Source: Escherichia coli (GTDB taxonomy: Bacteria > Pseudomonadota > Gammaproteobacteria > Enterobacterales > Enterobacteriaceae). Taken from it: DNA of 64,000 bases. This document shows positions 45,001 through 51,000 of the stretch, piece after piece; position 1 is the first letter of the stretch; each line of letters starts with the position of its first letter. Position numbers: made by a program. The stretch lies in NCBI RefSeq assembly GCF_003018255.1, contig NZ_CP027440.1; one strand, written 5' to 3'.

Positions 45001-48000
45001 TAACGATAAAGAACAGGGAGTGAGTTATGTCCAAAAATGAACAAATGGTGGGCATCAGCCGCAGAACACTCGTTAAATCTACCGCGATAGGTTCTCTGGC
45101 GCTGGCTGCAGGCGGTTTTTCTTTACCGTTCACCCTGCGCAGTGCAGCGGCAGCGGTACAGCAGGCCAGCGAGAAAGTGGTCTGGGGTGCCTGTTCCGTC
45201 AACTGTGGTAGCCGCTGTGCACTTCGTCTGCATGTTAAAGATAATGAAGTGACCTGGGTGGAAACTGACAACACCGGCAGCGATGAGTATGGCAATCATC
45301 AAGTACGCGCCTGTTTGCGCGGTCGCTCCATCCGTCGGCGTATTAATCATCCCGACCGCTTGAATTACCCAATGAAACGCGTGGGCAAACGCGGCGAAGG
45401 CAAATTCGAACGGATTAGCTGGGATGAAGCCCTGGATACTATCGCCAGTAGCCTGAAAAAAACCGTCGAACAATATGGCAATGAGGCTGTATATATTCAG
45501 TACTCTTCAGGGATCGTTGGCGGCAATATGACCCGCTCTTCGCCATCCGCCTCGGCGGTCAAACGCCTGATGAACTGCTACGGCGGTTCACTCAACCAGT
45601 ATGGCTCCTACAGCACCGCGCAAATCTCCTGTGCCATGCCCTACACCTACGGCAGTAATGATGGCAACAGCACAACGGATATTGAAAACAGCAAGCTGGT
45701 CGTGATGTTTGGTAACAACCCGGCAGAAACCCGCATGAGCGGTGGTGGCATCACTTATCTTCTTGAAAAAGCGCGCGAGAAATCGAACGCAAAAATGATT
45801 GTTATCGATCCGCGATATACCGATACGGCTGCCGGTCGTGAAGACGAATGGCTTCCTATTCGCCCGGGCACCGATGCCGCGCTGGTTGCGGGTATTGCCT
45901 GGGTATTGATTAACGAAAATCTCGTTGATCAACCTTTTCTCGATAAATACTGCGTCGGCTATGACGAAAAAACCTTACCCGCAGATGCACCAAAAAATGG
46001 TCACTATAAAGCCTATATTCTTGGTGAAGGAGACGACAAAACAGCGAAAACGCCGCAGTGGGCTTCGCAAATTACCGGTATCCCGGTGGACCGTATCATC
46101 AAACTGGCGCGTGAAATTGGCACAGCAAAACCCGCTTATATCTGCCAGGGCTGGGGACCGCAACGCCAGGCAAACGGCGAGCTGACTGCACGCGCTATTG
46201 CGATGTTGCCTATTCTGACGGGCAATGTCGGCATCAGCGGCGGGAATAGTGGCGCGCGTGAATCGACCTATACCATTACCATAGAACGCCTGCCGGTGCT
46301 GGATAATCCGGTCAAAACGTCAATCTCCTGCTTCAGCTGGACGGATGCTATCGATCATGGCCCGCAAATGACGGCAATCCGCGACGGCGTCCGGGGCAAA
46401 GATAAACTGGATGTGCCCATTAAGTTCATCTGGAACTACGCGGGAAATACCCTGGTTAATCAGCATTCTGACATCAACAAAACGCATGAAATTCTGCAGG
46501 ACGAATCGAAATGCGAAATGATTGTGGTCATCGAAAACTTTATGACCTCATCGGCAAAATATGCCGACATTCTGCTGCCAGACCTGATGACCGTTGAGCA
46601 GGAAGATATTATTCCTAACGACTACGCCGGTAACATGGGATATCTCATTTTCCTCCAGCCTGTCACCAGCGAAAAATTCGAACGCAAACCAATTTACTGG
46701 ATCCTGAGTGAAGTCGCGAAACGTCTTGGACCTGACGTCTATCAAAAGTTCACTGAAGGTCGCACGCAGGAACAATGGTTACAACATCTGTACGCCAAAA
46801 TGCTTGCCAAAGATCCGGCGTTACCGTCTTACGACGAATTAAAAAAAATGGGTATCTATAAGCGTAAAGATCCCAATGGTCATTTTGTCGCCTACAAAGC
46901 ATTTCGTGACGACCCCGAGGCAAATCCACTTAAAACGCCTTCCGGTAAGATTGAAATTTATTCCAGCAAGCTGGCGGAAATTGCCCGTACCTGGGAACTG
47001 GAAAAAGATGAAGTGATAAGCCCACTGCCGGTTTATGCCTCAACCTTTGAAGGCTGGGACTCCCCTGAACGTAGTACCTTTCCACTGCAACTGTTTGGTT
47101 TCCATTACAAATCCCGTACTCACTCGACCTACGGCAACATTGATGTCCTGAAGGCTGCCTGCCGTCAGGAGGTGTGGATCAACCCTATAGACGCACAGAA
47201 ACGTGGGATTGCCAACGGCGATATGGTGCGGGTGTATAACCATCGTGGCGAAGTTCGGCTACCAGCCAAAGTGACACCACGCATTCTCCCTGGGGTTAGC
47301 GCTATGGGCCAGGGAGCCTGGCACGAGGCCAATATGTCTGGCGATAAAATCGACCATGGCGGCTGTGTGAATACGCTAACCACTCTGCGCCCTTCACCAC
47401 TGGCGAAGGGAAACCCGCAGCACACTAATCTGGTCGAGATCGAAAAAATATAACCCACTACAACCATAAATTCTGGCATGACATTTTGTTTGAAAAGCAA
47501 TAAGTGAGTAATGATGAAAATCCATACCACAGAGGCGCTCATGAAGGCTGAAATCAGCCGTAGAAGTCTGATGAAAACCTCCGCACTTGGCAGTCTCGCG
47601 CTGGCAAGCAGTGCTTTCACTCTGCCATTTTCCCAAATGGTCCGAGCGGCAGAGACACCGGTAGAAGAGAAAGCGGTCTGGAGTTCCTGCACCGTTAACT
47701 GCGGGAGCCGCTGTCTGTTACGTTTGCATGTGAAAGATGACACCGTGTACTGAGTGGAGTCTGATACGACAGGAGACGACGTTTACGGTAATCATCAGGT
47801 TCGGGCATGTTTACGCGGGCGCTCTATCCGCCGACGGATGAATCATCCTGATAGGTTGAAATATCCCATGAAGCGCGTCGGCAAGCGCGGTGAAGGTAAA
47901 TTTGAACGGATAAGTTGGGATGAAGCCCTGGATACCATCAGTGATAATCTTCGGCGGATCCTTAAAGATTACGGCAATGAGGCTGTACATGTCCTGTACG

Positions 48001-51000
48001 GAACAGGCGTAGATGGCGGAAACATCACCAACTCGAACGTCCCGTACCGTCTGATGAACTCTTGCGGTGGTTTTCTCAGTCGCTATGGCAGCTACAGTAC
48101 CGCTCAAATCAGTGCCGCAATGAGTTATATGTTCGGTGCCAATGATGGCAACAGCCCGGATGATATCGCCAATACGAAACTGGTCGTTATGTTCGGAAAT
48201 AACCCGGCAGAAACCCGGATGAGCGGCGGTGGTGTCACTTACTACGTCGAGCAAGCCCGAGAACGTTCAAACGCACGCATGATCGTCATCGATCCACGTT
48301 ATAACGACACAGCTGCCGGGCGTGAAGATGAATGGCTGCCAATTCGCCCAGGCACCGATGGCGCACTGGCCTGTGCGATTGCCTGGGTACTGATTACTGA
48401 AAACATGGTCGATCAGCCATTTCTCGACAAATATTGTGTTGGTTACGATGAAAAAACGCTGCCCGCCAACGCACCACGTAACGCGCATTATAAAGCCTAT
48501 ATTCTGGGCGAAGGGCCTGACGGCATAGCTAAAACGCCGGAATGGGCAGCAAAAATCACCAGCATCCCGGCAGAAAAAATTATCCAGTTGGCACGAGAGA
48601 TCGGTTCAGCAAAACCTGCTTATATTTGTCAGGGTTGGGGGCCACAACGACACTCCAACGGCGAACAAACGTCCCGCGCTATTGCCATGCTTTCCGTTCT
48701 CACCGGTAACGTCGGCATAAACGGCGGCAACTCAGGTGTACGCGAAGGTAGCTGGGATCTGGGGGTAGAATGGTTCCCGATGCTTGAGAATCCTGTTAAA
48801 ACGCAGATTTCCGTCTTTACATGGACAGATGCCATCGACCACGGTACGGAAATGACCGCGACCCGTGATGGTGTTCGTGGAAAAGAAAAACTGGATGTCC
48901 CCATCAAGTTTTTATGGTGCTACGCCAGTAACACATTGATCAATCAACATGGCGACATCAATCACACCCATGAGGTGCTTCAGGATGACAGCAAGTGCGA
49001 GATGATTGTTGGCATTGACCACTTCATGACTGCCTCGGCTAAGTATTGCGATATCCTGTTGCCCGACCTGATGCCAACAGAGCAAGAAGACCTTATCTCT
49101 CACGAATCTGCCGGGAATATGGGCTATGTGATCCTCGCCCAACCCGCAACCTCAGCAAAATTTGAACGCAAACCCATCTACTGGATGCTGAGCGAAGTTG
49201 CCAAACGCTTAGGACCAGACGTTTATCAAACCTTTACTGAAGGCCGCAGTCAGCACGAATGGATCAAATATCTCCATGCGAAAACGAAGGAACGTAACCC
49301 TGAGATGCCCGACTACGAGGAGATGAAAACGACCGGGATCTTTAAGAAAAAATGCCCGGAAGAACACTACGTCGCTTTCCGCGCATTCCGTGAAGATCCA
49401 CAGGCAAACCCGTTGAAAACACCTTCGGGGAAAATCGAAATTTATTCTGAACGACTGGCGACGATTGCGGATACCTGGGAATTGAAAAAAGATGAAATTA
49501 TTCATCCCCTTCCTGCGTATACCCCAGGTTTTGATGGCTGGGACGATCCCCTGCGGAAAACCTATCCACTGCAGCTAACGGGCTTCCACTACAAAGCGCG
49601 TACCCACTCCAGCTACGGCAATATTGATGTGTTACAGCAGGCCTGCCCACAAGAGGTGTGGATCAACCCTATTGATGCTCAGGCACGCGGTATCCGTCAT
49701 GGCGATACCGTGCGGGTATTTAACAATAATGGAGAAATGCTGATTGCCGCAAAAGTGACTCCGCGTATTCTGCCTGGCGTTACCGCCATCGGGCAAGGTG
49801 CGTGGCTTAAAGCGGATATGTTTGGTGACCGGGTCGATCACGGCGGCAGTATCAATATTCTGACCTCTCACCGCCCTTCACCGCTGGCAAAGGGAAACCC
49901 GTCGCACAGCAATCTTGTCCAGATCGAAAAGGTTTAAGGAGTAGCCCATGACCACACAATATGGATTTTTTATCGATTCCAGCCGCTGTACTGGCTGTAA
50001 AACCTGCGAACTGGCGTGCAAAGATTTTAAAGTTGGTTACGTATCGTTTAAAATCAATTAGATAGCCCGTCATTTCTGCGCTCACACGTCCCAACATTGA
50101 AAAACATGCAAAGCTTTGTAAGCCGATGCAAAGCTTTGTGTGTCTCACTTTTGTCCCAATACCAATCCGAATCCACCCTTTGTCATCATTGAGAAATGGC
50201 AAGGAAGAAAAGGATGTTACTGCACGATTTGACAAATCCGCCAGAGCTATCGCATACTGACCGCACTAGAACTTCAAAGCGGTCATCCGCACCCGATAGC
50301 TTTGCGGCTTTTTTATGCCTGCAATTTGGCATAGTCACATCCGTACAAAGGTCGGGTGGAGAGGCGTAATACAATACCCGCAAGGGGAATATGCCCGGAG
50401 CATCTTTGAAGGCTCTAGTTGACACCCGATCACCAGCCACTAACTGGTGATTGCTAACTAAAACTTCAAAGGAGGTCATCATGACCAGTCAACTCATCCC
50501 CGTATTCAACGGCACTATCGACAACGAAACAACTCTTCTAGTTAACGCTCGTGATCTACACTCTTTTCTTGGTGTGGGCAGAATGTTCGCGCACTGGGTT
50601 AAAGAGCGCATTGCTGAATATGGATTCGTTGAAAATCAAGATTTTGTTATTGCTTGCCAAAATTGGCAAGCAAAAGGTAGAGGCGGTCACAACCGCAAGG
50701 AATACCACCTCACCCTCGACACAGCCAAAGAGCTTGCGATGGTTGAACGTAACGAAAAAGGCCGCCAGATACGCCGATACTTCATCGAGTGCGAAAAGAA
50801 ACTTCGCAACATTCAGCCAGTACAAACTGAGCAGCAATTCACAGCAGAAGACATCATCCTGCTCTGCTACGTTCAACTCTGGATGGAAAAAGCACAACAA
50901 CTCAGTAAGCAGCTATACCCCGTCATGAGAGAACTGAATTCTGATTACTACGGGAAACTGTTTGATCTGGCCTACGAGACTCGTCATATAACCAACCGGA

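Follow-up and report, generated by a model that had tools for sequence, protein, structure and literature searches.

A probable young nonsense pseudogene of ynfF in an Escherichia coli ynfEFGH-dmsD operon carrying a Stx-type prophage

We analysed the tandem paralogs ynfE and ynfF in a stretch of 64,000 nucleotides of an Escherichia coli genome (contig NZ_CP027440.1 of assembly GCF_003018255.1), which is referred to below as the window. The second of the two genes, ynfF, is interrupted by one premature TGA, and the next gene of the operon, ynfG, is cut by a prophage resembling those of the Shiga toxin (Stx)-converting phages. We consider it likely, with good confidence, that the minor paralog, ynfF, has recently become a nonsense pseudogene in this strain and that it decayed under relaxed selection. 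The operon around it is split by a prophage whose type and insertion site are both known. Gene decay of this ordinary kind stays within known biology and involves no new mechanism.

The ynfEFGH-dmsD operon encodes a selenate/tellurate reductase that is exported by the twin-arginine translocation (Tat) system and is paralogous to DmsABC (PMC5203670, PMC12096835; Lubitz & Weiner 2003 and Guymer et al. 2009, as cited in these two papers). YnfE is its main catalytic subunit and YnfG its electron-transfer subunit, and DmsD, encoded at the end of the operon, binds the signal peptides of DmsA, YnfE and YnfF (PMC5203670, PMC12096835). The dependence of YnfE on Tat and DmsD has been described, and in Salmonella YnfF is 71% identical to YnfE and accounts for a small share of the selenate reductase activity (PMC5203670). 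The window resembles the operon of E. coli and Salmonella in its genes, their order, the neighbourhood and the two putative Tat signals, with an identity between ynfE and ynfF of about 70%, compared with 71% in Salmonella. Unlike the standard operon, it has a stop in place of Trp81 of ynfF (W81*) and a ynfG cut after codon 28, with ynfH and dmsD displaced beyond the window. The features of the two paralogs are as follows.

45027..47453, + strand: ynfE, intact; open reading frame (ORF) of 808 codons plus TAA for a Tat-exported molybdoenzyme catalytic subunit (selenate/tellurate reductase, DmsA paralog).
45057..45077, + strand: twin-arginine motif S-R-R-T-L-V-K of YnfE, residues 11-17, read from the translation.
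47454..47510, + strand: spacer of 57 nt between ynfE and ynfF, from the sequence and a simple scan.
47511..49937, + strand: whole frame of ynfF, 808 sense positions in a collinear frame with its sole internal stop at codon 81.
47511..47753, + strand: 5' fragment of ynfF, 80 codons plus the premature TGA, encoding the putative Tat signal and the N-terminal half of the Fe4S4 domain, which includes three Cys of CTVNCGSRC.
47556..47576, + strand: twin-arginine motif S-R-R-S-L-M-K of YnfF, residues 16-22, read from the translation.
47751..47753, + strand: premature stop TGA at Trp81 (TGG elsewhere), by a G to A change at 47753.
47754..49937, + strand: remainder of ynfF, 727 open codons, with neither the putative Tat signal nor FS0 cysteines 1-3.

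An earlier note on this DNA had placed two head-to-tail paralogs at 45027-49937, one of them intact and the other with a premature stop. These limits proved exact (ORF 45027-47453 and frame 47511-49937, each of 808 codons or positions), the single stop was found at codon 81 of ynfF, and the tandem arrangement was borne out by the paralog-specific NCBIfam models, the 57-nt spacer and a repeat finder. The product of ynfE scored 1796.9 bits on NF041885 selenate_YnfE (cut-off 1675) and the 727-residue remainder of YnfF 1662.2 bits on NF041884 selenate_YnfF (cut-off 1650), each scoring lower on the model of the other paralog. Both therefore passed the paralog-specific cut-offs within the DmsA/YnfE/YnfF subfamily (TIGR02166, NF041885 and NF041884). 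The note had also given each gene its own Tat signal. Both motifs, SRRTLVK and SRRSLMK, are indeed visible; the Pfam profile TAT_signal was not reported for YnfE, and on the YnfF fragment its match was weak (E = 0.004, 17.4 bits, under the gathering cut-off of 22.7).

The ynfF frame has stops at codons 81 and 809 only and shows no second lesion. Codon 81 lies in the context GTG TAC TGA GTG GAG; the YnfE residue aligned to it is Trp, and the codon was TGG in all 19 of the additional ynfF loci that were read, which had been retrieved via exact-protein look-ups. As in a nonsense pseudogene, the gene thus has a stop where orthologs and paralog alike have a sense codon, and this stop removes 90% of the protein. 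When the window strain was compared with the nearest allele, that of strain JNE23-011, the G to A change at 47753 was the sole difference between positions 46344 and 50032. The two best ynfF matches, JNE23-011 and JNE112863, differ from the window in one base, their identity of '100.0%' being a matter of rounding.

The TGA allele was found nowhere else. A 61-nt probe centred on the TGA had an exact match in none of the 5,258 complete E. coli genomes matched, a test which a TGA-bearing genome with an extra single-nucleotide polymorphism (SNP) nearby would slip past. A 38-nt exact pattern was absent from metagenome contigs, and no carrier of the TGA came out of exact-protein look-ups made with YnfE, a DUF551 protein and a 2794-residue phage protein of the window. 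The stop is most likely real. If so, it would be very young and private to one lineage, since there is no other lesion in ynfF, all alleles read have TGG and the probe had no match.

If the TGA came from a sequencing error, a faulty assembly or a mutation in the sequenced laboratory culture, the true strain would have TGG and its ynfF would be intact. That no search found the allele elsewhere agrees with such an origin, as does the absence of any other difference from the nearest allele in 3.7 kb, and other assemblies of the ynf locus bear probable indel artefacts. The change is, however, a substitution and no indel in a homopolymer, dcp and the 29 neighbouring genes are clean, and a simple ynfF nonsense mutation has arisen independently in another lysogen, so such alleles do occur. 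We therefore regard such an origin as unlikely.

One database protein, WP_413146160.1, matches the truncated product exactly over 79 residues and was considered as an occurrence of the same truncation. It was rejected, since its gene is ended by the end of the contig, 2 nt into codon 81 of ynfF (locus L003, 9206-9444). The source is an unrelated E. coli draft with 193 differing sites over 9.4 kb. The record equals the window fragment minus the first Met by coincidence, and represents a trap for exact-match look-ups.

The 80-codon fragment is matched at its N-terminus by the NCBIfam YnfF and DmsA models, and Pfam finds in it positions 1-26 of the 55 of the Molybdop_Fe4S4 profile only. The stop thus splits the Fe4S4 domain, and the Molybdopterin and Molydop_binding domains lie in the 727-residue remainder. 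Because translation ends within the Fe4S4 domain, when the signal peptide and one half of this domain have been made, no functional periplasmic YnfF would be possible in the window strain. Reinitiation, for instance at the GTG right after the TGA, would yield a protein lacking the signal peptide and the first three cysteines.

UGA is the leakiest stop codon of E. coli and is misread by tRNA-Trp, and a read-through product of this gene would be wild-type. It is therefore conceivable that the codon is recoded, being read either by tRNA-Trp or as selenocysteine, and that ynfF is tuned down and not dead. That the stop is a UGA at a Trp codon, followed by a fully intact frame, fits this idea. Near-cognate reading by tRNA-Trp should nevertheless give a trace of product at most, and any YnfF made would still be without YnfG. 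The TGA allele is a singleton and not conserved, and at this position the paralog and every allele read have Trp, and neither Cys nor selenocysteine. There is no hairpin like a selenocysteine insertion sequence (SECIS), the 65 nt 3' of the UGA folding worse than shuffled sequences (z = +1.04), and no Rfam match. Selenocysteine insertion or programmed recoding was rejected on the latter grounds, together with the Trp in the homologs, and we hold recoding of any kind to be highly improbable.

The second element of our reading is the prophage in ynfG, which was absent from the earlier note. The 'different fates' of the two paralogs described there are real, and are set within an operon that is already broken in the adjoining gene. 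The features of this region are as follows.

49948..50032, + strand: 5' stub of ynfG, the first 28 of 205 codons, after which the frame enters phage DNA.
50026..50032, no strand assigned: probable attachment (att) core TTTAAAG, from the junction in the window compared with the distal junction of O104:H4 2011C-3493 and with empty sites.
50033..64000, no strand assigned: left arm of a short-tailed, Stx-phage-like lambdoid prophage (POCJ13 / 75/02 / 933W-type), extending past the end of the window.
54439-62823, - strand: intact gene for a giant phage protein of 2794 residues (LPD5/LPD1/MuF_C/LPD38), from gene content.

The prophage cuts ynfG 95 bases downstream of the end of ynfF, and collinearity with JNE23-011 stops at 50033, 85 nt into ynfG. 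The frame of the stub runs for 37 codons in all, with a stop at codon 38, and matches TIGR02951 DMSO_dmsB over residues 4-26; the equivalent stub of other lysogens is listed as a pseudogene for an incomplete '4Fe-4S binding protein'. From 50033 to 64000 the sequence is covered to 99% by Shigella phage POCJ13 at 93.5% identity, with further matches to 75/02 and to many Stx1 and Stx2 phages, and the arm carries genes for an Ant antirepressor, an Ea22-like protein, a DUF551 protein and the LPD5/LPD38 giant protein. The 14 kb of prophage in the window constitute its left part; the integrase end, any stx genes, ynfH and dmsD lie beyond.

ynfG is a published integration site of Stx1 phages (PMC5447701, PMC10562709), and the junction 50032/50033 was found in 81 of 5,426 complete E. 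coli genomes, O104:H4 included. At the distal end of the prophage in O104:H4 2011C-3493, intD adjoins a ynfG remnant of 184 residues, followed by ynfH and dmsD; this remnant begins again at 'MVSNNFKDLGPE' and so is without the first cysteine cluster. Junction and phage arm in the window are like those of the Stx-converting phages at ynfG in Shigella (POCJ13 and 75/02), of the Stx1a prophage of the Shiga toxin-producing E. coli (STEC) RM10410 and of O104:H4. Unlike these cases, the window adds a nonsense mutation in ynfF.

Directly downstream of ynfF, where the operon partners ynfG, ynfH and dmsD are expected, the window has 28 codons of ynfG and then prophage up to its end. Relatives carry intact operons, and the break in ynfG is a secondary disruption. 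With a prophage in codon 28 of ynfG, the ynfEFGH-dmsD operon is already severed in this strain, and both catalytic subunits have lost their cognate iron-sulphur partner.

We further looked at the state of both genes across the species. Coverage was below 80% for ynfF in 567 of 5,316 genomes and for ynfE in 207 of 5,318. The disrupted alleles were inspected as a sample of the partial-coverage classes and not as an exhaustive survey. Nearly all ynfF alleles sampled from the below-80% class were of one type, with internal deletions of 580 bp and 274 bp, and this two-deletion pseudogene occurs in about 10% of complete E. coli genomes, some 560 of them besides the example described next. In the one example inspected, E. 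coli Ecol_732 (locus L006, 5004-6573), nt 718-1297 and 2072-2345 of ynfF are lost, and ynfE, ynfG, ynfH and dmsD are intact beside it. As in Ecol_732, ynfF of the window is inactivated and ynfE is kept; unlike that allele, which has two deletions in an otherwise intact operon, the window has a private nonsense change in an operon split by a prophage.

Among 19 other loci with a prophage in ynfG, taken as a sample for lesion counts, two had a lesion in ynfF and three a lesion in ynfE, and in most of the lysogens sampled, O104:H4 included, both genes are intact. One of the two ynfF lesions is an independent nonsense mutation, R18* (AGA to TGA), in the unrelated ynfG lysogen GCA_027236305.1 (locus L029, 3864-6290), where it removes the second Arg of the twin-arginine motif. 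The second ynfF lesion, in 2014C-3338, is a +1 insertion in a run of six A. Since about 10% of genomes carry the two deletions and R18* arose independently in a lysogen, ynfF is dispensable across E. coli.

Loss of ynfF might instead have been selected. Once ynfG was cut, an orphan YnfF precursor could be costly or could titrate DmsD away from DmsA, so that early knock-outs of ynfF and ynfE would be favoured. Two independent and very early nonsense mutations of ynfF (codons 18 and 81) in two unrelated lysogens are in line with this proposal, as are the ynfE lesions in three more lysogens; DmsD is, moreover, common to DmsA, YnfE and YnfF and encoded at the end of the operon (PMC5203670, PMC12096835). 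On the other hand, both genes are intact in most sampled lysogens, ynfF is lost at a similar rate where ynfG is intact, and ynfE, supposedly the more active paralog, is untouched in the window. The sample is also small, and some of its lesions may be artefacts. We thus find selected loss improbable. If it were true, prophage integration would trigger a predictable cascade of compensatory pseudogenisation through Tat burden or DmsD titration.

The reading that we prefer is decay of ynfF under relaxed selection. A single G to A transition would have turned Trp81 (TGG) of ynfF into TGA, and this stop would most likely have drifted in as a neutral change, selection having been relaxed from two sources that do not exclude each other. 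One source would be the status of ynfF as a minor, dispensable paralog in both E. coli and Salmonella. The other would be the Stx-type prophage, whose insertion in codon 28 of ynfG splits the operon in the gene of the shared electron-transfer subunit, with ynfH and dmsD parted from the ynfE promoter by the whole prophage. As regards the 'divergence or decay' proposed in the earlier note, decay is retained, and divergence does not describe the stop, a single recent and strain-private G to A change in an otherwise perfect gene.

Several points weigh against this reading. The frequency of ynfF lesions in lysogens, 2 of 19, is close to the species-wide structural loss of about 10% with ynfG intact, and it could not be demonstrated that the prophage insertion hastened the decay or caused the relaxation. 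Several of the frameshifts lie in homopolymers or short runs of long-read-only assemblies and may be errors. The order of the two events, prophage before stop or stop before prophage, is one that we can only infer. Finally, a single-base assembly error, although unlikely, would be compatible with the sequence. Nor could an enrichment of ynfE or ynfF lesions in strains with a prophage in ynfG be demonstrated, the sample being too small and confounded by probable long-read indel errors.

The practical consequence for annotation is that ynfF of the window should be flagged as a pseudogene. The allele belongs to an accessory respiratory operon that is well characterised and weakly selected. The locus provides one data point on how ynfF, and more rarely ynfE, has been lost repeatedly and independently in E. 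coli, and another on what Stx-type phages cost the host metabolism, as a side effect, when they integrate at ynfG. Such an integration would abolish the Ynf selenate/tellurate reductase and would detach from the operon promoter the gene dmsD, whose product, a chaperone, is also needed by DmsABC.

The gene ynfE is intact, and the exact YnfE protein allele is common across E. coli assemblies. Its product has the Pfam domains Molybdop_Fe4S4, Molybdopterin and Molydop_binding in the expected order. ynfE is probably still intact only since too little time has elapsed. It should be annotated as intact here, its function being probably lost because its electron-transfer partner is gone.

The earlier note had further described the two genes as very similar in sequence and their repeated DNA as a possible substrate for recombination. 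The similarity was overstated. In a pairwise global alignment, 69.7% of the nucleotides and 69.6% of the amino acids were identical; identity reached 80% in the best 100-nt window, and the longest exact run was 20 nt. Identity by codon position was 79%, 83% and 46%, and the p-distance at fourfold-degenerate sites was 0.617, which corresponds to saturation. The repeat finder recorded the paralogy as blocks at a spacing of 2484/2496 nt with 71-77% identity per block. Because identity is about 70% and fourfold sites are saturated, the duplication is ancient, and no sign of concerted evolution between the two genes was seen. Salmonella, too, is reported to have both copies, at a comparable divergence (PMC5203670).

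The same values speak against the second claim. With about 70% identity and no exact run longer than 20 nt, the pair would be a poor substrate for recombination. A check of other strains for hybrid alleles, as the note had suggested, gave no support either: among the disrupted alleles inspected in the sampled strains there were no hybrids or conversion tracts between ynfE and ynfF, and the disruptions came from deletions associated with the insertion sequences (IS) IS1 or ISEc52, from an integrase-bearing element in ynfE, or from simple internal deletions. This integrase-bearing element lies at about nt 1400 of ynfE in other strains (loci L021, 137-2854, and L023, 5001-11413), which points to a second site of mobile-element attachment in the ynf operon.

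A further observation concerns ynfE between 45674 and 46343, where 22 SNPs relative to JNE23-011, nearly all at third codon positions, are clustered within 670 bp; the flanking 3.7 kb are identical to JNE23-011 except for the stop. Gene conversion between ynfE and ynfF was considered as their origin and rejected, 8 of the 22 matching ynfF for either allele. The cluster is an ordinary small mosaic from recombination between strains, and not as conversion between the paralogs.

The gene order is the standard one of E. coli, rspAB-ynfA-ynfB-speG-ynfC-ynfD-ynfE-ynfF, followed by the truncated ynfG. A simple scan of the spacer at 47454..47510 revealed no promoter-like or terminator-like site. All 29 flanking genes and dcp are intact, and no IS elements were found in 16000-50032. 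A genome-wide decay of the Shigella kind was rejected, for this locality, on these two grounds.

Three observations concern the prophage arm. The exact sequence of the 2794-residue giant protein is absent from the protein collection, its relatives having 2793 residues or being annotated as frameshifted in other lysogens. About 2.1 kb of the arm at 52080-54228 (the DUF551 / Ea22 region) find no aligned counterpart in 2014C-3338, the closest lysogen, and form a variable block of moron-type accessory genes. At 50104-50143, about 70 nt inside the phage arm by the att junction, the near-palindromic ATGCAAAGCTTTGT occurs as a twin copy, which was flagged as a 17-bp stem and is possibly a binding site for the integrase or an accessory protein.

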